From a virus: a stretch of DNA of 28,253 nt. This document shows, one piece after another, positions 1,365 through 21,130 of this stretch. The translations under genes were made by a program, and so were the position numbers. Position 1 is the stretch's first letter; each line of letters opens with the position of its first letter. The notes under the pieces were generated by a model. That model was given only the letters and a program-made list of their open reading frames with translations, was not told where the DNA came from and searched no databases. The DNA lies in UHGV virus genome UHGV-0121368; one strand, written 5' to 3'.

Positions 1365-1636
1365 GCATTCGTATTGAAATTGGCGAACGTTATGTCGTTA
1401 CCAGTGACAGCTTTCAGTTTATTCTCCACGAGAAAAAGAGAGCGGAAAGCGGTAAAAACGCCGGTCAGGAATGGCTGGCGGTGGTTGGTTATTACCCGAA
1501 ATTAAGCCAGCTCGTTTCCGGCCTGATGCATCACGATATTCTGACCGGAAGCGCAAAGTCTTTTGCTGATTTAAACGCGCAGGTTGAGCAACTCAGCAGG
1601 CGTTGTTCAGAGGCTTTTGGCTCACATGGCCGTTAA
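1361..1636 (+). CDS. Hypothetical early-region protein (P2 orf83 position), 91 aa
   Basis: ORF overlaps the start of A by 11 nt; position matches P2 orf83. Confidence 0.5.
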   Translation: MSIRIEIGERYVVTSDSFQFILHEKKRAESGKNAGQEWLAVVGYYPKLSQLVSGLMHHDILTGSAKSFADLNAQVEQLSRRCSEAFGSHGR

Positions 1637-3893
1637 AGCCTCAGGGCGTTTTGTCCCTCCGTCAGCATTTGCCGCAGGCACCGGTAAGGCGTTTACTGGT
1701 GCTTATGCATGGAACGCGCCACGCGAGGCTGTCGGGCGCGAAAGACCCCTTACACGTGACGAGATGCGTCAGGTGCAAGGTGTTTTATCCACGATTAACC
1801 GCCTGCCTTACTTTTTGCGCTCGCTGTTTACTTCACGCTATGACTACATCCGGCGCAATAAAAGTCCGGTACACGGGTTTTATTTCCTCACATCCACTTT
1901 TCAGCGTCGTTTATGGCCGCGCATTGAGCGCGTGAATCAGCGCCATGAAATGAACACCGACGCGTCGTTGCTGTTTCTGGCAGAGCGTGACCACTATGCG
2001 CGCCTGCCTGGAATGAATGACAAGGAGCTGAAAAAGTTTGCCGCCCGTATCTCATCGCAGCTTTTCATGATGTATGAGGAACTCTGCGATGCATGGGTTG
2101 ATGCGCATGGTGAAAAAGAATCGCTGTTTACGGATGAGGCGCAGGCGCATCTGTATGGTCATGTTGCTGGCGCTGCACGTGCTTTCAATATTTCCCCGCT
2201 CTACTGGAAAAAATACCGTAAAGGACAGATGACCACGAGGCAGGCATATTCTGCCATTGCCCGCCTGTTTAACGATGAGTGGTGGATTAGTCAGCTTAAA
2301 GGCCAGCGTATGCGCTGGCATGAAGCGTTACTGATAGCTGTCGGGGAGGTCAATAAAGACCGTTCTCCTTATGCCAGTAAACACGCCATTCGTGATGTGC
2401 GTGCGCGCCGCCAGGCAAATCTGGAATTTCTTAAATCGTGTGACCTTGAAAACAGGGAAACCGGCGAGCGCATCGACCTTATCAGTAAGGTGATGGGCAG
2501 TATTTCTAATCCTGAAATTCGCCGGATGGAGCTGATGAACACCATTGCCGGTATTGAGCGTTACGCCGCTGCAGAGGGTGATGTGGGGATGTTTATCACG
2601 CTGACCGCGCCGTCAAAGTATCACCCGACACGTCAGGTAGGAAAAGGCGAAAGTAAAACCGTGCAGCTTAATCACGGCTGGAACGATGAGGCATTTAATC
2701 CAAAGGATGCGCAGCGTTATCTCTGCCGTATCTGGAGCCTGATGCGCACGGCATTCAAGGATAATGATTTACAGGTCTACGGTTTGCGTGTCGTCGAGCC
2801 ACACCACGACGGAACGCCGCACTGGCATATGATGCTTTTTTGTAATTCACGCCAGCGTAACCAGATTATCGAAATCATGCGTCGCTATGCGCTCAAAGAG
2901 GATGGCGACGAAAGAGGAGCCGCGCGAAACCGTTTTCAGGCAAAACACCTTAACCGGGGCGGTGCTGCGGGATATATCGCGAAATACATTTCAAAAAACA
3001 TCGACGGCTATGCACTGGATGGTCAGCTCGATAACGACACCGGCAGGCCGCTGAAAGACACTGCAGCGGCTGTTACCGCATGGGCGTCAACGTGGCGCAT
3101 CCCGCAATTTAAAACGGTTGGCCTGCCGACAATGGGGGCTTACCGTGAACTACGCAAATTGCCGCGCGGCGTCAGCATTGCTGATGAGTTTGACGAGCGC
3201 GTCGAGGCTGCACGCGCCGCCGCAGACAGTGGTGATTTTGCGTTGTATATCAGCGCGCAGGGTGGGGCAAATGTCCCGCGCGATTGTCAGACTGTCAGGG
3301 TCGCCCGTAGTCCGTCGGATGAAGTTAACGAGTACGAGGAAGAAGTCGAGAGAGTGGTCGGCATTTACGCGCCGCATCTCGGCGCGCGTCATATTCATAT
3401 CACCAGAACGACGGACTGGCGCATTGTTCCGAAAGTGCCGGTCGTTGAGCCTTTGACTTTAAAAAGCGGCATCGCCGCGCCTCGGAGTCCTGTCAATAAC
3501 TGTGGAAAGGTCACCGGTTGTGATACTTCGTTACCGGCTCCCACACCTTCTGAGCACGCCGCAGCAGTGCTTAATCTGGTTGATGACGGTGTTATCGAAT
3601 GGAATAACCCGGAGGTTGTGAGGGCGCTCAGGGGCGCATTAAAACACGGCCTGAGAACGCCAAATCGTCAGCAAAGAAACGGAAGCCCGTTAAAACCACA
3701 TGAAATTGCACCATCGGCCAGACTGACCCGGTCGGAAAGAATGCAAATTACCCGTATCCGCGTTGACCTTGCTCAGAACGGTATCAGGCCGCAGCGATGG
3801 GAGCTTGAGGCGTTGGCGCGCGGGGCAACAGTAATTTATGACGGTGAGCGGTTTAGTTATGCTGTAAAAGACGATTGGGTGATGTTTTCTTAA
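1626..3893 (+). CDS. A: Replication initiation protein A (rolling-circle nicking endonuclease), 755 aa
   Basis: Start moved to the ATG at 1626 (MAVKASGRFVPP...), which matches the P2 gpA N-terminus as I recall it; tandem-tyrosine region GYIAKYISKNIDGY typical of the rolling-circle initiator active site; length close to P2 A (761 aa). Confidence 0.85.
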   Translation: MAVKASGRFVPPSAFAAGTGKAFTGAYAWNAPREAVGRERPLTRDEMRQVQGVLSTINRLPYFLRSLFTSRYDYIRRNKSPVHGFYFLTSTFQRRLWPRIERVNQRHEMNTDASLLFLAERDHYARLPGMNDKELKKFAARISSQLFMMYEELCDAWVDAHGEKESLFTDEAQAHLYGHVAGAARAFNISPLYWKKYRKGQMTTRQAYSAIARLFNDEWWISQLKGQRMRWHEALLIAVGEVNKDRSPYASKHAIRDVRARRQANLEFLKSCDLENRETGERIDLISKVMGSISNPEIRRMELMNTIAGIERYAAAEGDVGMFITLTAPSKYHPTRQVGKGESKTVQLNHGWNDEAFNPKDAQRYLCRIWSLMRTAFKDNDLQVYGLRVVEPHHDGTPHWHMMLFCNSRQRNQIIEIMRRYALKEDGDERGAARNRFQAKHLNRGGAAGYIAKYISKNIDGYALDGQLDNDTGRPLKDTAAAVTAWASTWRIPQFKTVGLPTMGAYRELRKLPRGVSIADEFDERVEAARAAADSGDFALYISAQGGANVPRDCQTVRVARSPSDEVNEYEEEVERVVGIYAPHLGARHIHITRTTDWRIVPKVPVVEPLTLKSGIAAPRSPVNNCGKVTGCDTSLPAPTPSEHAAAVLNLVDDGVIEWNNPEVVRALRGALKHGLRTPNRQQRNGSPLKPHEIAPSARLTRSERMQITRIRVDLAQNGIRPQRWELEALARGATVIYDGERFSYAVKDDWVMFS

Positions 3894-3976: not shown

Positions 3977-5299
3977 ATGAGTGCGTTAAGGGATGAAGTA
4001 TCTATGAAGGTTGCGTTCTCTAATGGCATGATAAACAAATTATGCAAAAGTTTTTTTTATAGTCATGGTAAGGAGCAGCCTTGTATTCAAGTCGGTAAAG
4101 CATTAGAAGATTTTGTTTTTTGGCTTGCATATAATGATGAGGAGATTGCAAAATGTGCTAGTAGGTTATTAAAAGCATATGGCCCCCAATTAGGTATAAG
4201 TGACCTTCACAATGCGAAAAGATTATTGTTAGGTTTTTGTTCTGAAGCCTTCAATCGCATTGATGCTGATTTTCTGTCGCTTAATCCTGATAAGATTTGT
4301 GTTGATGATATTATAACGCAAGTTCATAGAAAAAATCTTAGTGAGATGTTTAAGTATTATATACTTTCACGAATAAAATCCTGTCCGTATATTTATAATC
4401 TTGGGTGTGCTGGCTTTGATGGGAAGCTTGAGCTTAGAGAAAATTTATTTTTATATGGCCCGGGGCTAGGGGTGGAATTACTTTCTGATATTAAAGACAA
4501 AACTGACATCAAGGTTCCTGTTGATTTTTATGATGATGAATATATGCGGCATAAACCAATTGGGAAATATTTTCGACAGTCAAAATCCTGCTTGGTGGTG
4601 GCATATGCTTCATCAGAGGATAAAGCGGTGAAAATGTTTGATAGTTTGTTTGGAGCTTTATGTTTTGCGGTTGATAATCCTTTTGCGATTAATCGAGTTG
4701 CTGTTAATAATCTAGTTGAGTCTTTTGGTGTCGGGAAATATCATGAAAGTGAGTTTCGGGTGAATATTCCGTCTGTATATAATTTAAATATAACGGATTC
4801 AGCCTTGGCGATACTTACAAAAATACTTTCATCACCTGATAAAAGGATGTTGTCTGCTCTTTCCTTTATAGCGCACGGGTGGAGGGATGACAAACGTGAA
4901 AGGTTTTTGAATCAATTTATAGCATTGGATGCTATGTATGGAACCAATAATGGTAATAAAAATTCAATTATTGGCGGTGTTTGCAGAGATGCGGCGAAAA
5001 TTATTGATATTGATTCAAAAATAGGAATAATCTATGAGCTTAGGTGTAAGTTTGTTCATGGAGATATTTCATCGTTATCTGATAATGATAGCTATCGAAA
5101 GTTTATTGATAGCTATGGCGTGGACCCTATTGTTTCTCTTTTTGAAATTCTTAAAGAATGCGTCCTTAATTATAATGGTACTTACAAAACGCCAAAAGAT
5201 GTTGGAAAGGCAGATAGGTCTATTTGCGTTCCTGCTGAGTTGCTTCCAGCGGTTGAGAGGATGATAGCGGAATACAGTGGAGTTAAAAAAACAAACTAA
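3977..5299 (+). CDS. Unknown 440-aa accessory protein at the tin/old-equivalent locus; possible HEPN-like C-terminal region (R-x4-H-G)
   Basis: Long uninterrupted ORF in a visibly AT-rich stretch; AAGGA Shine-Dalgarno 10 nt upstream of the ATG; lies between the A stop and cos; no P-loop; motif ELRCKFVHGD at aa 354-363. Confidence 0.6.
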   Translation: MSALRDEVSMKVAFSNGMINKLCKSFFYSHGKEQPCIQVGKALEDFVFWLAYNDEEIAKCASRLLKAYGPQLGISDLHNAKRLLLGFCSEAFNRIDADFLSLNPDKICVDDIITQVHRKNLSEMFKYYILSRIKSCPYIYNLGCAGFDGKLELRENLFLYGPGLGVELLSDIKDKTDIKVPVDFYDDEYMRHKPIGKYFRQSKSCLVVAYASSEDKAVKMFDSLFGALCFAVDNPFAINRVAVNNLVESFGVGKYHESEFRVNIPSVYNLNITDSALAILTKILSSPDKRMLSALSFIAHGWRDDKRERFLNQFIALDAMYGTNNGNKNSIIGGVCRDAAKIIDIDSKIGIIYELRCKFVHGDISSLSDNDSYRKFIDSYGVDPIVSLFEILKECVLNYNGTYKTPKDVGKADRSICVPAELLPAVERMIAEYSGVKKTN

Positions 5300-15859: not shown

Positions 15860-16768
15860 ATGCCGATTATCGACCTGAACCAGCTACCCGCACCGGATGT
15901 GGTCGAGGAGCTGGACTTTGAAACCATTCTCGCCGAACGCAAGGCGACACTGATTTCCCTTTACCCGGAAGACCAGCAGGAGGCGGTCGCCCGTACCCTG
16001 ACGCTGGAATCCGAGCCTCTCGTCAAACTGCTGGAGGAAAATGCTTATCGTGAGCTTATCTGGCGTCAGCGTGTGAATGAGGCCGCACGGGCGGTGATGC
16101 TGGCCTGTGCCGCCGGTAATGACCTTGATGTGATTGGTGCCAATTACAACACCACGCGCCTGATTATCACCCCGGCAGATGATTCGACTATCCCGCCGAC
16201 ACCGGCAGTGATGGAGTCTGACACCGATTATCGTCTGCGTATTCAGCAGGCGTTTGAGGGCTTAAGCGTCGCCGGGTCGGTGGGAGCCTATCAGTATCAT
16301 GGTCGCAGTGCTGACGGGCGTGTCGCGGATATTTCTGTCACCAGTCCGTCTCCGGCCTGCGTCACCATCTCTGTGCTGTCACGTGAAAATAACGGCGTCG
16401 CATCCGAAGACCTGCTGGCTGTGGTGCGTAACGCCCTTAATGGCGAGGACGTCAGGCCGGTGGCCGACCGCGTGACCGTGCAGTCTGCCGCCATCGTTGA
16501 ATACCAGATAAACGCCACGCTTTACCTTTACCCTGGTCCCGAAAGCGAACCCATACGCGCTGCCGCCGTGAAAAAACTGGAAGCGTACATCACGGCACAG
16601 CACCGGCTGGGGCGTGACATCCGTCTGTCTGCCATTTATGCCGCTTTGCATGTGGAAGGCGTGCAGCGTGTTGAACTGGCTTCACCACTGGCCGACATCG
16701 TGCTCAACAGTACGCAGGCGTCTTTCTGTACCGAATACCGCGTCGTGACCGGAGGCTCGGATGAGTGA
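15860..16768 (+). CDS. J: Baseplate protein J, 302 aa
   Basis: 302 aa, equal to P2 gpJ. Confidence 0.85.
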   Translation: MPIIDLNQLPAPDVVEELDFETILAERKATLISLYPEDQQEAVARTLTLESEPLVKLLEENAYRELIWRQRVNEAARAVMLACAAGNDLDVIGANYNTTRLIITPADDSTIPPTPAVMESDTDYRLRIQQAFEGLSVAGSVGAYQYHGRSADGRVADISVTSPSPACVTISVLSRENNGVASEDLLAVVRNALNGEDVRPVADRVTVQSAAIVEYQINATLYLYPGPESEPIRAAAVKKLEAYITAQHRLGRDIRLSAIYAALHVEGVQRVELASPLADIVLNSTQASFCTEYRVVTGGSDE

Positions 16769-17372
16769 TTCGCGACTGCTGCCGACCGGCTCATCACCGC
16801 TTGAAGTCGCTGCTGCAAAAGCCTGTGCGGAAATTGAAAAAACGCCGGTCAGTATTCGTGAGCTGTGGAACCCGGACACCTGCCCGGCAAATCTGCTGCC
16901 GTGGCTGGCGTGGTCATTTTCGGTTGACCGCTGGGATGATAAGTGGCCGGAAGCGACAAAACGCGCTGTTATCCGCGATGCGTATTTCATTCACTGCCAT
17001 AAGGGCACTATAGGCGCAATCCGGCGTGTGGTGGAGCCGCTCGGCTATCTGATTGAGGTGAGGGAGTGGTGGCAACTCAATGAGGAGCCGGGGACGTTCC
17101 GTATCGTTGTTGGCGTGCTTGAGCAGGGTATTACCGAGGAAATGTATCAGGAGCTGGAGCGCCTCGTTGCTGATGCAAAACCGGCAAGCCGCCATCTGAC
17201 GGGACTGGCTATCAGTTTAAGTACAACCGGCAACATTTTTGCCGGTGCGGGATGCTATCACGGCGACGCCCTGACAGTTTATCCCTACACCCCGGAGGCC
17301 ATTATTGTCGGAGGGGATTATTTCCCGGCCTCGGCCATTCATTTAATTGATAACCTGAGAGTAAACGCATGA
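16761..17372 (+). CDS. I: Baseplate protein I, 203 aa
   Basis: Overlaps the J stop and the H start; position matches P2 gpI (recalled as 176 aa, so here somewhat longer). Confidence 0.75.
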   Translation: MSDSRLLPTGSSPLEVAAAKACAEIEKTPVSIRELWNPDTCPANLLPWLAWSFSVDRWDDKWPEATKRAVIRDAYFIHCHKGTIGAIRRVVEPLGYLIEVREWWQLNEEPGTFRIVVGVLEQGITEEMYQELERLVADAKPASRHLTGLAISLSTTGNIFAGAGCYHGDALTVYPYTPEAIIVGGDYFPASAIHLIDNLRVNA

Positions 17373-18781
17373 CAGTGAAATACTACGCCATTCTGACTAA
17401 TCAGGGCGCAGCACGGCTGGCTAACGCGACGATGCTTGGCAGTAAGCTGAATCTGACGCAAATGGCCGTTGGTGATGCGAATGGTGTCTTGCCGACACCA
17501 GACCCGGCACAGACAAAACTGATTAACCAGAAACGCATCGCGCCGCTGAATCTTCTGAGTGTTGACCCGAACAACCAGAGCCAGATTATTGCGGAGCAAA
17601 TTATCCCTGAGAACGAGGGTGGATTCTGGATCCGTGAGATTGGGCTTTATGATGATGAAGGCGTACTCATTGCGGTGGCGAACTGCCCGGAAACGTACAA
17701 ACCGCAGTTACAGGAAGGCAGCGGTCGTACCCAGACTATCCGCATGATTCTGGTTGTCACGAATACCGAAGCTATTACGCTGAAAATCGACCCGTCGGTG
17801 GTACTGGCGACCCGTAAATACGTGGATGATAAAGTCCTGGAATTAAAGCTGTATGTGGATGACCAGATGAGAAACCACATTGCCGCACAGGATCCTCATA
17901 CCCAGTATGCACAGAAACATAATCCGACATTTACCGGAGAACCAAAAGCGCCGACGCCTGCCGCAGGAAATAACACCACGCGGATTGCGACCACTGCGTT
18001 TGTACAGGCCGCTATTACCGCTCTGATTAACGGTGCCCCTGACACGCTGGACACACTGAAAGAAATTGCCGCAGCTATCAACAATGACCCGAAATTCAGT
18101 ACCACCATTAACAATGCGCTGGCAGGTAAACAACCGCTGGACAATACGCTGACTCATTTGAGTGGAAAGGATGTAGCTGGTCTTCTCACATACCTTGGTT
18201 TGGGAGAAGGCTCTGCATTACCTGTTGGTGTCCCTGTTCCGTGGCCTTCAGCCACTCCGCCAACAGGCTGGCTGAAATGCAATGGTGCGGCTTTTTCTGC
18301 TGAAGAATACCCGGAACTGGCAAAGGCTTACCCGACAAATAAATTGCCAGATTTACGTGGTGAGTTTATTCGTGGCTGGGATGACGGGCGAGGGATTGAT
18401 GGGGGGCGCATACTTCTCAGTTGTCAGAGTTTTGCTTTCCAGGACCATGCGCACGCTCTGCCAACCGGAGTGGGTAATCCGTCATACCAGATGGAAAGCG
18501 ATATCTATACGGTTTTCAACGATGAACCAGAAATACCCAGTGCGGTCCTGAGTCCATCGTCGTCAGGAACATCATGGGACGCAACCAGTAGGGCAGACAA
18601 GGTAATCCTTTATCGCAAGGACCTTTCACCAACAGGTAATAACAACGAAATAGCGCCCGGATTACCACCATTCAGGACTTACAGGGCATCGACCTCAGAC
18701 GGTGTTACTCATCCGTCCGTGTACGCATCTGAAACCCGTCCGCGCAACATTGCATTTAACTACATCGTGAGGGCTGCATAA
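17369..18781 (+). CDS. H: Tail fibre protein H, 470 aa in the current orientation of the invertible segment
   Basis: Tail-fibre-like N-terminus (MTVKYYAILTNQGAARLANATMLGSKLNLTQMAVGDANG...); the C-terminal 194 aa lie inside the invertible segment. Confidence 0.85.
   Translation: MTVKYYAILTNQGAARLANATMLGSKLNLTQMAVGDANGVLPTPDPAQTKLINQKRIAPLNLLSVDPNNQSQIIAEQIIPENEGGFWIREIGLYDDEGVLIAVANCPETYKPQLQEGSGRTQTIRMILVVTNTEAITLKIDPSVVLATRKYVDDKVLELKLYVDDQMRNHIAAQDPHTQYAQKHNPTFTGEPKAPTPAAGNNTTRIATTAFVQAAITALINGAPDTLDTLKEIAAAINNDPKFSTTINNALAGKQPLDNTLTHLSGKDVAGLLTYLGLGEGSALPVGVPVPWPSATPPTGWLKCNGAAFSAEEYPELAKAYPTNKLPDLRGEFIRGWDDGRGIDGGRILLSCQSFAFQDHAHALPTGVGNPSYQMESDIYTVFNDEPEIPSAVLSPSSSGTSWDATSRADKVILYRKDLSPTGNNNEIAPGLPPFRTYRASTSDGVTHPSVYASETRPRNIAFNYIVRAA
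18183..18208. repeat. Left 26-bp Hin/Gin-type crossover site (TTCTCACATACC-TT-GGTTTGGGAGAA) inside H
   Basis: The 12-bp half-site GGTTTGGGAGAA is the exact inverted repeat of TTCTCCCAAACC at 19869..19880; overall layout resembles hix/gix sites (12-bp half-site, 2-bp core, 12-bp half-site). Confidence 0.65.
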
Positions 18782-19386
18782 TGGCGAAAGCAAAATTAAA
18801 CAGTGCGTTTATTGCCACCGTGGCAGGAGAAATCACTGTGTACAACTACCGGGGCGACACCCGCGAATACATATCCTCATCGCTTGAGTATCTGCCTGTG
18901 GGGGTGGGTATTCCTGCCAATTCCTGTACCGATGCGCCCGGCACACATAAGGCTGGTTATGCAATCTGCCGTTCTGCAGATTTTAACTCATGGGAATATG
19001 TGCCAGACCATCGCGGTGAAATTGTCTATGGCATCGAAACGGGGGAATCAAAAGAAATTACTGTGCCGGGGGATTACCCTGAAAATACGACCACTTTTGC
19101 CCCATTAACGCCATACGATAAATGGGATGGTGAGAAATGGGTAACAGATACCGAGGCACAGCATAGCGCCGCAGTAGATGCAGCAGAAGTACAGCGCCAG
19201 TCTCTGATTGATGCTGCTATGGCTTCCATCAGTCTGATTCAGCTGAAATTGCAGGCCGGACGTAAACTGACGCAGGCAGAAACAACCCGCCTTAACGCTG
19301 TGCTGGATTACATTGACGCGGTGACGGCAATAGATACCAGCACCGCGCCTGATATTATTTGGCCTGTATTCCCTGAGACTGATTAA
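18781..19386 (+). CDS. G: Tail fibre assembly chaperone, 201 aa
   Basis: ATG overlaps the H stop (TAATG); C-terminal motif DTSTAPDIIWPVFP typical of Tfa-family chaperones. Confidence 0.8.
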   Translation: MAKAKLNSAFIATVAGEITVYNYRGDTREYISSSLEYLPVGVGIPANSCTDAPGTHKAGYAICRSADFNSWEYVPDHRGEIVYGIETGESKEITVPGDYPENTTTFAPLTPYDKWDGEKWVTDTEAQHSAAVDAAEVQRQSLIDAAMASISLIQLKLQAGRKLTQAETTRLNAVLDYIDAVTAIDTSTAPDIIWPVFPETD

Positions 19387-19615
19387 CCTCAATCAGTATT
19401 GGTTCGCCTTTCTCATTAATTGTTAGCTCCATGCCCTGAGGAATTTCTGTCATAGTAAAAAACCAGTTGTCCTCCGGTAATTCAATAGCCCCGGTCACGT
19501 CATGAAGACCGGGGATTACTTCAGTCAAAGTAACTGGATTAAACAGGCGCACAATAAACCCTCCATGAAAAAGCATTTGATGATGGTCTGCCGTCGTACA
19601 TCTGGCAGCGGGCAT
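19355..19615 (-). CDS. Small ORF (86 aa) downstream of the alternative H cassette; possible alternative chaperone, or spurious
   Basis: Minus-strand ORF inside the invertible segment; overlaps the alternative H cassette and the 3' end of G; lacks the Tfa C-terminal motif. Confidence 0.2.
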   Translation of the reverse strand: MPAARCTTADHHQMLFHGGFIVRLFNPVTLTEVIPGLHDVTGAIELPEDNWFFTMTEIPQGMELTINEKGEPILIEVNQSQGIQAK

Positions 19616-19880
19616 AAAAGCCGGTATTTGTTACCTGATCATCCACGATCATTGAAACGTGAACATTATTAGGTGTGCTCTCGTAATCCGTTCTTATTCT
19701 TTCTGCGATACTGATAAAACGTGAAAGTTTAGGCAGTGCAATTGGGTAAACGACTTTAGCCAGTCCATTATCATTAGATCCACCGGTTCCAAATACTTCT
19801 ATTGCACCATCTGACCAGCGTACCCATGCACCATTGGCATTAGCTCCTCGCTGAATGACATATCTGGCTTCTCCCAAACC
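19539..19880 (-). CDS. Alternative tail-fibre C-terminal cassette (about 113 aa), silent in the current orientation
   Basis: The minus-strand frame reads G-L-G-E across the crossover half-site exactly as H does, so inversion fuses the constant H N-terminus (aa 1-276) in frame to ...GLGEARYVIQRGANANGAWVRW...; no own start codon or promoter. Confidence 0.55.
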   Translation of the reverse strand, partial: GLGEARYVIQRGANANGAWVRWSDGAIEVFGTGGSNDNGLAKVVYPIALPKLSRFISIAERIRTDYESTPNNVHVSMIVDDQVTNTGFYARCQMYDGRPSSNAFSWRVYCAPV

Positions 19881-19894
19881 AACGTTTTATGGAA
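19869..19894. repeat. Right 26-bp Hin/Gin-type crossover site (TTCTCCCAAACC-AA-CGTTTTATGGAA)
   Basis: Inverted partner of the site at 18183..18208; 14 of the first 14 positions are identical to the reverse complement of the left site. Confidence 0.65.
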
Positions 19895-19982
19895 TCGGTT
19901 AAATATGATGTTGAAAGAAGGGAATGTTTTAGTATTGATTGTTAGATAAAAATGGAAAGTGCTGATTGTCACGGTATATTTT

Positions 19983-20014
19983 AAGATGGTAACACCAAAT
20001 GGTGCTACCATCTT
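19983..20014. terminator. 14-bp stem-loop (AAGATGGTAACACC-AAAT-GGTGCTACCATCTT), possible bidirectional terminator
   Basis: Near-perfect inverted repeat with one G-U-compatible mismatch, followed on the plus strand by TATTAGTT; lies between the right crossover site and the 105-aa ORF stop. Confidence 0.4.
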
Positions 20015-20020
20015 TATTAG

Positions 20021-20338
20021 TTATCTGTTCCTTCTGAGGATTCCGCTACTCCCTTGTGTTGTAGGGTTTGATTTTTTCCAATAATGATAACCTTGTGATG
20101 TAATCCTTAGAGAGTCAGTATCTACACTCCATCCATCAATACTTTCAGGAGAACCATCAAAGATTACCTTTCCTGTAAGATACCCATCGTCATGCAGAAA
20201 GGCGATATATCCATAAACTTCTTTTAAATCACCAATTTCATTGACCAGGCGTTCCCACGCTTGAGCAGTGATTCTCTCTGGATAGGCTTCGACAAAATAT
20301 TTCAGTGTGGTAGTTTTTTTATTGGTATCGATGTTCAT
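20021..20338 (-). CDS. Unknown 105-aa protein in the Z/fun-equivalent variable locus
   Basis: Minus-strand ORF in an AT-rich island between the invertible segment and the invertase gene; no recognisable motif. Confidence 0.45.
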   Translation of the reverse strand: MNIDTNKKTTTLKYFVEAYPERITAQAWERLVNEIGDLKEVYGYIAFLHDDGYLTGKVIFDGSPESIDGWSVDTDSLRITSQGYHYWKKSNPTTQGSSGILRRNR

Positions 20339-20536
20339 CAGATTTTCCTTTTATTGAGGTCAACATATCTTACCATACTTAATTGATTCACATGGGAATG
20401 CTAAGTGGGCTATGTATCCACTATCAGTAAATATTCTTATCCTGCAAGATTATTGTAATTGAGTGCTTCATAGTCTTGTCCGCTTGTACATATATAGATA
20501 ATTCTGTGTCATTATTCTGTTTTTATAGGGATTTTT

Positions 20537-21130
20537 ATGCATATAGGTTATGTTCGTGTATCAACAAATGACCAGAACACGGAATTGCAGCGTAACGCGC
20601 TGGAGTGCGCAGGATGTGAGCTGATTTTTGAGGATAAAATCAGCGGCACGAAGTCCGATCGACCGGGACTGAAAAAACTGCTCAGAACATTATCAGCAGG
20701 TGACACTCTGGTAGTCTGGAAGCTGGACAGGCTGGGGCGTAGTATGCGGCATCTGGTCATTCTGGTTGAGGAACTGCGCGAACGCGGTGTTAATTTTCGC
20801 AGCCTGACGGATGCCATTGATACCAGCACGCCGATGGGGCGTTTTTTCTTTCATGTGATGGGGGCCCTGGCTGAAATGGAACGAGAACTCATTGTCGAGC
20901 GGACTCGGGCCGGGCTGGAAGTGGCCAGAGCCAAAGGTCGTATTGGTGGCAGACGTCCTAAACTCACCACGAGTGAGTGGGAGCAGGCCGGGCGTTTGCT
21001 GGCTGCAGGGGAGTCACGTCAACGCGTGGCACTGATTTTTGATATTGGTCTGTCCACGCTCTATAAAAAATTTCCCTCATCAGCGACAAAGAATAAATTG
21101 TGTCATCCCTTAGCCAACCGGGACAAATAG
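20537..21130 (+). CDS. Serine DNA invertase (Hin/Gin/Pin/Cin family), 197 aa
   Basis: N-terminal catalytic motif IGYVRVSTNDQ with the nucleophilic Ser near position 9-10; LVVWKLDRLGRS and GRFFFHVMGALAEMERELIVERT blocks; C-terminal HTH (GLSTLYKKFP); closely resembles Hin as I recall it. Confidence 0.9.
   Translation: MHIGYVRVSTNDQNTELQRNALECAGCELIFEDKISGTKSDRPGLKKLLRTLSAGDTLVVWKLDRLGRSMRHLVILVEELRERGVNFRSLTDAIDTSTPMGRFFFHVMGALAEMERELIVERTRAGLEVARAKGRIGGRRPKLTTSEWEQAGRLLAAGESRQRVALIFDIGLSTLYKKFPSSATKNKLCHPLANRDK

Follow-up and report, generated by a model that had tools for sequence, protein, structure and literature searches.

Can the tail-fibre gene of this prophage still exchange its C-terminal end, and if so, what would each of its two states produce? 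The question is raised by a viral genome (UHGV-0121368, 28,253 nt, here called the window) in which the distal part of fibre gene H lies between two short inverted sites and close to a recombinase gene. An initial annotation, made from the letters alone, had described the region as a Hin/Gin-type invertible segment resembling Mu G, P1 C and e14 P, and had labelled it a shufflon. We conclude, with a probability of about 0.92, that the tail-fibre operon of this P2-like E. coli prophage contains a functional inversion switch of the Gin type with two states.

The host element is recognisable from its tail module, which follows the P2-like (Peduoviridae) order V-W-J-I-H-G ... FI-FII-E-T-U-D with P2-type domains (Pfam, on genome L008, which is the same as the window). 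Phage_GPA is found at 1584-3893 and the closest phage matches belong to Peduovirus. The late region looks complete and P2-like, with capsid, lysis and tail genes intact. Rfam and tRNA scans of the window gave no matches.

Results

One fibre shaft, two C-termini

The constant part of H (17369..18196, plus strand) comprises 276 codons (828 nt), carries the Phage_tail_fib N-terminal domain (Pfam PF12571, E = 1.9e-62) and ends in a TT core. In the orientation found here, it continues into a variable C-terminus of 194 aa with a phage tail Collar domain (18197..18781, plus strand; Pfam PF07484, E = 5.6e-15), which makes an H protein of 470 aa (276 + 194). Downstream of it, a full-length Tfa/gpG-like tail-fibre assembly protein of 201 aa (18781..19386, plus strand; Pfam Caudo_TAP, E = 2.2e-30; phrog_105) serves the Collar-type tip. 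The alternative C-terminus, 113 aa that read GLGEARYVIQ...CAPV, is encoded on the minus strand at 19539..19880 and is silent as found. When the 1,684 bp between the cores (18197-19880) were inverted in silico, this cassette was fused in frame to the constant part, giving an H of 389 aa (276 + 113) that ends in ...CAPV. The GLGE reading frame and the in-frame replacement of the 194-aa end by one of about 113 aa on a 276-aa N-terminus, both foreseen in the initial annotation, were thereby reproduced. The locus has the anatomy of a host-range segment, with the crossover inside the fibre gene, two C-termini in frame and an accessory gene for each of them.

The 113-aa tip is weakly gp53-like (PF21882 at 18.9 bits, below the Pfam gathering cutoff of 24.9) and aligns with the C-terminus of phrog_2557 (E = 5.7e-15). 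A PDB sequence search with the tip gave no match, and single-sequence AlphaFold2 produced an unusable model (mean pLDDT 42.2). Its dN/dS of 0.12-0.18 indicates purifying selection. The shortness of this cassette and the weakness of its partner ORF had been pointed out as unusual; both are real, but neither is a sign of decay, given that the cassette is under purifying selection and widespread, and that 31 complete E. coli genomes have it in the orientation in which it is expressed.

Two gix-type sites and a Gin-like invertase

The left crossover site, a gix-like sequence of 26 bp (TTCTCACATACC TT GGTTTGGGAGAA, 18183..18208), codes for ...LTYLGLGE... in the H frame, and the right one, also of 26 bp (TTCTCCCAAACC AA CGTTTTATGGAA), lies at 19869..19894; letters and coordinates are those given by the initial annotation. 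The cores are TT at 18195-18196 and AA at 19881-19882; AA being TT on the other strand, the two sites are mutually inverted. When the right site is reverse-complemented, it agrees with the left one in the core and the inner half-site TTGGTTTGGGAGAA (14 nt, exact), and over a longer stretch 17 of 18 nt are equal. Two inverted 26-bp sites, imperfect 12-bp half-sites and identical 2-bp cores are the features of Gin-class sites. A search pattern derived solely from the architecture of Mu gix (TT-N5-WAACC-NN-GGTTW-N5-AA, at most one mismatch) matched the 28,253-bp window at two places, precisely these sites, against 0.02 matches expected by chance, and 16-18 of the 26 positions are equal to those of Mu gixL/gixR.

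Is the region then a shufflon? The R64 shufflon (Rci) likewise relies on DNA inversion to give PilV, an adhesin-like protein, alternative C-termini. A shufflon has many sites, several segments and a tyrosine recombinase, unlike the window with its two sites and serine invertase. No third crossover site was found in the whole window with four different patterns, whereas a multiple-inversion system needs at least three, and an Rci-type shufflon in the strict sense is dismissed by the neighbouring recombinase, which is of the serine and not of the tyrosine type. With no more than two sites and an invertase of the serine type, the locus is a simple binary switch, and the label shufflon is wrong.

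The invertase gene (20537..21130, plus strand) is an intact ORF for a Gin/Hin-family serine DNA invertase of 197 aa (Resolvase, E = 1.2e-51; HTH_7, E = 9.5e-13); compared with the structures of Mu Gin (3uj3 and 4m6f), the protein scores E = 7e-93 and is about 80% identical. Its N-terminus, MHIGYVRVS, puts a serine at position 9, and Ser9 is the nucleophilic serine of Gin (PMC3575834). The Fis/enhancer contacts of Hin are made by K47, R48, K51, Q151, R154 and L155 (PMC3798978); at the contact residues, with the Hin numbering mapped by eye, the window invertase is equal to Gin (K46, K47 and R50, plus EWEQAGRLL and DRPGLKK..R). The 5′ 264 nt of the gene align without gaps with Mu gin (about 77% identity, by-eye count), and a Fis-dependent enhancer is predicted within the 5′ 60-170 nt. 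A scan of the 5′ part of the gene for pairs of Fis sites 48 bp apart, using a Fis consensus, did not single out any pair decisively.

Between the right site and the invertase gene lies an AT-rich insert of 642 bp (19895..20536), which is positioned among the parts of the switch without being one of them. It contains a 105-aa ORF (20021-20338, minus strand) with no match in PADLOC, Pfam, NCBIfam or PHROGs, and it is missing in strain 61 and in FDN-9. For enhancers of this class, distance is not known to play a role.

Both orientations in public genomes

L008 carries the window as found (100% over 8,587 bp), whereas L015 corresponds to the in-silico flipped window in one ungapped alignment of 8,497 bp, whose sole mismatch, at 16155, is 2 kb away from the switch. 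The annotation of L015 calls the 389-aa H, and the 642-bp insert is present there as well. Since L015, insert included, is the exact flipped form with one SNP in 8.5 kb, the flip must be very recent. The same relation is seen between complete genomes: in the homologous prophages of E. coli strains 61 and 64, a stretch of 7,581 bp differs in one respect only, namely that the 1,658 bp between the same sites are exactly reverse-complemented. Among complete E. coli genomes, 31 contain the flipped junction and 5 the as-found one. Three draft genomes have the segment as a separate contig with both ends in the AAACC-NN-GGTTT cores; breaks placed exactly at the cores are the expected product of a truly mixed population. 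In this comparison between assemblies, the breakpoints of the natural orientation variants coincide with the predicted cores. Together with the close relationship to Gin and the gix-type sites, the flipped molecule in public assemblies bears out the kinship with Mu G, P1 C and e14 P proposed at the outset. A further copy of the cassette lies beside pgm/seqA, in a tail module that appears to be defective (L013).

A stand-alone Tfa N-terminal domain accompanies the short tip

The initial annotation had found no convincing chaperone gene next to the alternative tip, only an 86-aa ORF without the Tfa C-terminal motif. The motif is indeed absent, but the size has to be corrected: the gene is best read as coding for 65 aa (19355..19552, minus strand), with a GTG start at 19552 preceded by GGAGG, the start of the 86-aa form being a non-conserved upstream ATG. 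The start overlaps the tip stop by 14 nt, and the gene would be expressed after inversion. Far from being an unconvincing partner, the encoded protein is homologous to the N-terminal domain of Tfa and stands alone; we refer to it as mini-Tfa. It aligns with positions 1-66 of the 145 of phrog_5400 and with residues 1-58 of a 128-aa Tfa of JK004 (BLASTP E = 3e-13, hhalign 98.1%), in which Caudo_TAP occupies 36-127; another protein, P0137 (131 aa), combines an N-domain of the mini-Tfa type with Caudo_TAP (E = 3e-20). The C-terminal helical domain Caudo_TAP (PF02413) is absent in mini-Tfa, which stops after the N-domain and had no match in Pfam, NCBIfam or PADLOC.

Relatives of mini-Tfa form 123 clusters, all of about 57-66 aa, longer calls deriving from upstream start codons. 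The gene is under purifying selection (dN/dS 0.25), is always directly downstream of the tip at the loci examined, and accompanies the short tip across seven genera or more. A recent truncation of a convergent Tfa gene was considered and dismissed, because copies from many genera, with identities down to about 60%, all end at 57-66 aa. Also discarded were the giant repeat proteins returned by an exhaustive phmmer search (P0121, with 2,709 aa and 15 stretches, DUF285/Spiralin and SpaA/SdrD), which are summed weak repeat matches and not homologues. A PDB sequence search with the mini-Tfa profile gave chance-level matches only, and the single-sequence AlphaFold2 model of the 65-aa protein was unusable (mean pLDDT 50.8).

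Discussion

A model of the switch can be drawn from these parts. Dimers of the 197-aa invertase would bind both 26-bp sites, cut the 2-bp cores, rotate the strands and religate them, leaving the 1,684 bp inverted. As found, late transcription would yield the 470-aa H with its Collar-type tip together with the 201-aa Tfa chaperone; after inversion, it would yield a 389-aa H, with the same 276-aa shaft and a compact 113-aa tip, together with the 65-aa mini-Tfa. Since there would be two fibre states, a lysogen population would release particles with two receptor-binding tips, a form of host-range bet-hedging, and the exchange of tips probably changes the host range. To these steps we would add, as inferred parts, a dependence on Fis and the enhancer, the pairing of each orientation with a receptor, and a contribution of mini-Tfa to the folding of the short tip.

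Could the switch have ceased to turn? The sites and the gene order might have been inherited while the enhancer was lost, or the invertase came to be poorly expressed after the insertion of the 642 AT-rich bp, so that the minus-strand cassette would be silent baggage. The Fis motif scan did not demonstrate a Fis/enhancer element, the insert parts the right site from the invertase gene, and in at least one sister prophage, KSC9, the invertase is pseudogenised by an internal stop. However, L015 carries this very insert and is nevertheless the exact flipped form with one SNP in 8.5 kb, the invertase ORF of the window is intact with its catalytic Ser9, and the silent cassette is under purifying selection, which together make a frozen relic very improbable. 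The differences in orientation might instead stem from assembly errors, or the inverted repeats might have recombined through RecA. Short-read drafts make up many of the assemblies, and assemblers can be confused by inverted repeats, as the small contigs illustrate. Yet the common repeat of 14-18 nt is shorter than the k-mers usually used in assembly and much too short for RecA to recombine it efficiently, the complete genomes 61 and 64 differ by a perfect inversion bounded by the 26-bp sites, core-exact contig breaks fit a mixed population, and a Gin homologue is encoded alongside; we give this explanation hardly any credence. Another Pin/Gin-like invertase of the same cell, acting in trans, might also account for the flips between assemblies.

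A different objection concerns not the inversion but its beneficiary. Besides or instead of changing the host range, it might make a prophage protein that shields the lysogen from the adsorption of other phages. There is a precedent in cryptic prophages, in which serine-recombinase inversion by PinQ and PinR is reported to inhibit T2 adsorption (PMC12529663), and the occurrence of the cassette in the apparently defective module by pgm/seqA would fit such a role. In the window, however, the late region looks complete, with its capsid, lysis and tail genes intact, and H and Tfa belong to the late operon, which should be silent in a lysogen. A benefit of this kind for the host is therefore improbable here, if a little less so than a relic, and a switch of the phage's own tail fibre remains our preferred reading.

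How does this switch compare with known ones? The e14 invertible segment, of about 1.8 kb, is similar in size to that of the window. One of its closest counterparts is the G segment of Mu with its invertase Gin, about 80% identical to that of the window. In each system the recombination sites measure 26 bp, with 12-bp half-sites flanking a 2-bp core and AAACC-NN-GGTTT at the centre; crossing over takes place within the fibre gene at a homologous coding motif (NLGLQE in Mu, YLGLGE in the window), two convergent cassettes each consist of a tip and a chaperone, and the invertase gene is found just outside the right site. They differ in the size of the segment (3 kb in Mu, 1.7 kb in the window), in the core (TC against TT), in the phage itself, which is transposable in the case of Mu and P2-like here, in the 642-bp AT-rich insert between right site and invertase gene, which of the two only the window has, and in one of the window's chaperones, cut down to an N-domain-only protein of 65 aa. 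e14 P/Pin and P1 C/Cin are likened to the window by arrangement: a Gin-family invertase lies beside a segment that fuses alternative C-termini to a constant fibre N-terminus (for e14, the fusion is described in PMC4272514). Their host elements differ from the P2-like prophage of the window, e14 being lambdoid and defective, and P1 a prophage that exists as a plasmid. For P2-like prophages of EPEC E2348/69, Goldberg et al. (2014, PMC4272514) demonstrated coexisting orientations of invertible tail-fibre loci with whole-genome sequencing and PCR. By description, both the element and the prophage are of the kind seen here, and one of the two EPEC loci is a simple two-variant switch; the other, with three inverted repeats and four variants, is a true multiple-inversion system, which the window does not have.

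The switch is real, functional and ordinary. Ever since Mu, tail-fibre inversion of the Gin type has belonged in the textbooks, and in conceptual terms the present case adds little, as inversion in P2-like E. coli prophages has already been shown experimentally (PMC4272514). Its practical side concerns annotation. Pipelines record the silent cassette as a hypothetical protein and call H only in the assembled orientation, and in consequence host-range predictions miss half of the receptor-binding repertoire; short-read assemblies, moreover, break at such crossover sites.

The sole modestly new element of the system is mini-Tfa. In the account of TfaMu conveyed by PMC9608196, the N-terminal domain of Tfa is reported to bind the fibre tip and the C-terminal helical domain to drive trimerisation (North et al. 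2019). Mini-Tfa likewise has the N-terminal domain of bona fide Caudo_TAP proteins; unlike these modular chaperones, it is devoid of the C-terminal trimerisation domain, and proteins of this short form constitute a separate, stable family. We tentatively suggest, at somewhat under even odds, that mini-Tfa represents an undescribed minimal class of fibre accessory proteins in which the N-domain works without the trimerisation domain, possibly as a folding clamp or as a receptor-recognising cap retained in the virion, and that tip and mini-Tfa may be sufficient by themselves as a host-range cassette that moves horizontally among the P2-like phages and tailocins of Enterobacterales. As a receptor-binding module, the short tip with its 65-aa helper is compact, has been preserved by evolution and readily recombines. 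If mini-Tfa truly replaces a full Tfa, the pair would be a handy minimal unit for engineering P2-type phages or tailocins, as well as a test case for the part of Tfa that is needed in fibre folding. The left crossover site is kept in sister prophages that have other cassettes.

An invertible tail-fibre segment bounded by two gix-like sites

The window spans the replication and late region of a P2-like prophage and carries gene A, capsid, lysis, baseplate V-W-J-I, H and G, followed by FI, FII, E, T, U and D, an order based in part on the Pfam listing for L008, a public-assembly locus that shows no difference from the window in 8,587 bp. The tail-fibre gene H (17369-18781) encodes 470 aa, of which the N-terminal fibre domain is of P2 type and the C-terminal part contains a Collar domain, and a 201-aa tail-fibre assembly protein (Tfa) of the Caudo_TAP family comes directly after it (18781-19386). 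On the minus strand, an open end of 113 aa (19539-19880) provides an alternative tip. The two 26-bp crossover sites proposed in the initial annotation were found at 18183-18208, with core TT, and at 19869-19894, with core AA, and the repeat finder returns them as an inverted pair of 18 nt, 94% complementary (I3). Allowing for the inverted orientation, the TT core of the left site and the AA core of the right one are identical, as religation after a 180-degree rotation demands. When exchange at the cores was carried out in silico, 18197-19880 was inverted and H became a 389-aa protein with the same 276 residues followed by GLGEARYVIQ...CAPV. The arithmetic put forward from sequence, 276 + 194 residues as found and 276 + 113 after the flip, was therefore exact. 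In the flipped state a small ORF comes after the tip.

Because the site pattern of the initial annotation gives no unbiased significance, we derived another, TT-N5-WAACC-NN-GGTTW-N5-AA with at most one mismatch, from the Mu gix architecture alone. It matched exactly twice in the 28,253-bp window, at both sites, where shuffles expect 0.02 matches, and four different searches of the window recovered these two sites and no third one. Two sister prophages, L001 and L002 (locus about 2315 and 4163-4324), have these 26-bp sites around quite different cassette pairs, with a gp53-like tip and a full 147-aa Tfa. The sites appear to serve as constant anchors between which modules of tip and chaperone are exchanged.

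The adjacent gene (20537-21130) encodes a 197-aa serine invertase (Resolvase+HTH_7) that matches Mu Gin crystal structures with E = 7e-93 and about 80% identity. Its catalytic serine lies at position 9, that of the Gin nucleophile (PMC3575834), and the segments with the Fis/enhancer contact residues that PMC3798978 lists do not differ from those of Gin. By homology, a Fis-dependent enhancer would lie near the 5' end of the gene, where a motif scan gave no decisive pair of Fis sites.

Both orientations are on record

Four independent lines of evidence support inversion. Looking up the exact 201-aa Tfa in public assemblies returned, among other loci, L008 and L015. The latter, in which a 389-aa H is called, gave one ungapped alignment of 8,497 bp with the in-silico flipped window, with a single mismatch at window position 16155, in a baseplate gene. 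The same prophage is thus recorded in both orientations. E. coli strains 61 and 64, both with complete genomes, carry a homologous prophage, about 93% identical to that of the window, and are identical to each other over 7,581 bp around it save for the orientation of the segment: the 1,658 bp that the same two sites enclose in one strain are, without a single mismatch, the reverse complement of those in the other. Both strains (NZ_CP048326 and NZ_CP048322, 1554890-1562470) come from one Swiss environmental series, and they offer a natural pair for comparing host range or lysogen phenotype in both states. A synthetic junction query (coverage of at least 80%) detected the flipped junction in 31 complete E. 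coli genomes, including E. coli W, and the as-found junction in 5. Several short-read drafts, from Intestinirhabdus, Pantoea and Xenorhabdus, have the homologous segment as a contig of its own (1.25-1.68 kb) that starts and finishes inside the AAACC-NN-GGTTT cores (L019, L025 and L027 being such whole contigs), and many contigs bearing the small ORF likewise measure 1.3-1.7 kb. Assemblers break at such points when the reads hold both junctions. Contigs of 1.25-1.68 kb bounded by this core could serve to flag active Gin-type switches in assemblies.

For this cassette pair, assembled orientation in complete genomes is skewed towards the short tip on H (31) over the Collar-type tip (5), and an opposite skew, 3 to 7, is seen among the 10 matches listed for the exact Tfa. 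Inversion bias, sampling or clonal relatedness may account for the skew.

The length of the repeat is well below what RecA-dependent recombination or k-mer confusion would need, so that site-specific inversion by the adjacent Gin homologue would be the sole reasonable mechanism. A related invertase might also act in trans. In E. coli KSC9 (L001, 4967-5560), a sister prophage that shares its sites and the 105-aa ORF with the window has an invertase annotated as a pseudogene with an internal stop, so that some copies of the switch are frozen or reliant on an invertase in trans.

What kind of element does this make it? The description as a Gin-type invertible tail-fibre segment holds, given the sites, the in-frame flip, the Gin homologue and both orientations on record. 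The label of shufflon does not, since two sites and a serine invertase make a binary switch. We consider the element a functional Gin-type, putative host-range switch. The Mu G segment is bounded by TTATCCAAAACC-TC-GGTTTACAGGAA and its inverted partner, which the window sites match at 16-18 of 26 positions, and the coding motifs at which crossover takes place, NLGLQE of Mu S and YLGLGE of the window H, are homologous. In the P2-like prophages of EPEC E2348/69, Goldberg et al. described one locus with three repeats and four variants and a second, simple two-variant locus, both confirmed by sequencing and PCR (PMC4272514). The former is a true multiple-inversion locus, unlike the window with its two sites. 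The paper also documents experimentally, in this phage group, the kind of element seen in the window. The switch therefore belongs to a well-known kind, and its only modestly new part is a Tfa relative consisting of the N-domain alone that accompanies the short tip.

The short tip and its 65-aa partner

The alternative cassette had been called unusual; it is indeed shorter but not degenerate, with dN/dS of 0.12-0.18 for the tip (window, strain 61 and strain FDN-9 compared) and 0.25, at dS 0.47, for the small ORF against its FDN-9 copy. The tip matches phrog_2557 (E = 5.7e-15) and, weakly, gp53-like C-terminal domains (18.9 bits, where Pfam sets its cutoff at 24.9); sequence search found no relative in the PDB, and among sequenced phages only Escherichia phage S164 (36%) and Xanthomonas phage DIBBI (32%) carry one. 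In L013 (GCA_001316705.2, 2805-5758) an identical invertible cassette of Tfa, small ORF and tip belongs to another type of tail module, whose H has 398 aa and no P2 N-domain and whose baseplate J has 367 aa, and the element ends beside pgm and seqA, two chromosomal genes. Either phages of different types have exchanged the cassette or the element is defective, to judge from this arrangement.

The small ORF (19355-19552, minus strand) had been given 86 aa. A GTG start overlapping the tip stop by 14 nt, with a GGAGG box 7 nt upstream, the gene calls in public assemblies and the invariant start MRLFNP of the family alignment all favour 65 aa. Its product matches positions 1-66 of the 145 in phrog_5400 and aligns with the Tfa of Cronobacter phage JK004 (128 aa) over residues 1-58 of the latter (BLASTP E = 3e-13; hhalign 98.1%), which otherwise consists of a Caudo_TAP domain; an exhaustive HMMER search added two full-length Tfa proteins with the same N-domain, P0137 (131 aa) and P0144 (147 aa). 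The Caudo_TAP part is missing from the small protein, as the initial annotation noted, and what it has is homologous to the N-domain of Tfa proteins. As reported in PMC9608196 from North et al. 2019, binding of the fibre tip falls to the variable N-domain of a Tfa, and trimerisation to its conserved C-domain. From this homology, the 65-aa protein is best described as a putative stand-alone tip-binding domain, which might chaperone, cap or act otherwise.

A word-indexed search with the protein gave 123 clusters, all named 'hypothetical' and all of 57-66 aa once upstream start calls are discounted, from Escherichia, Enterobacter, Salmonella, Citrobacter, Hafnia, Xenorhabdus, Erwinia and other genera. 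The order of tip, then small protein, is kept in Intestinirhabdus, Trabulsiella, Enterobacter soli, Pantoea, three Xenorhabdus species and Candidatus Erwinia dacicola, and the pair usually faces a cassette with a full-length Tfa. In E. dacicola its immediate neighbours are the constant H part on one side and the sheath gene on the other, and neither an invertase nor another Tfa is present; in this symbiont genome the element may be decaying. Three further matches, P0121, P0129 and P0140, were rejected as relatives: they are Mollicutes-type giant repeat proteins (DUF285/Spiralin) and SpaA/SdrD adhesins whose high summed scores are repeat-summation artefacts, built from many weak matches per protein. 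They might share a distant beta-sandwich fold with the 65-aa protein.

Candidate cargo genes

An AT-rich insert of 642 bp (19895-20536; GC 34-40% against about 50-57% in the flanks) separates the right site from the invertase gene. It holds a 105-aa ORF on the minus strand (20021-20338), for which Pfam, NCBIfam, PHROG and PADLOC gave no match and whose stop is closely followed by a 15-nt hairpin (19983-20014). The insert occurs in only 24 of 5,426 complete E. coli genomes and is missing from the sister prophages of strain 61 and FDN-9. It lies outside the switch proper and is taken as cargo; its position corresponds to the P2 Z/fun moron slot, which makes it candidate cargo of an uncharacterised kind, possibly anti-phage. 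A 440-aa ORF on the plus strand (3977-5299), with no Pfam or PADLOC match, lies directly 3' of the P2 gene A homologue (1584-3893), at the P2 old/tin hotspot for cargo, a frequent location of anti-phage genes.
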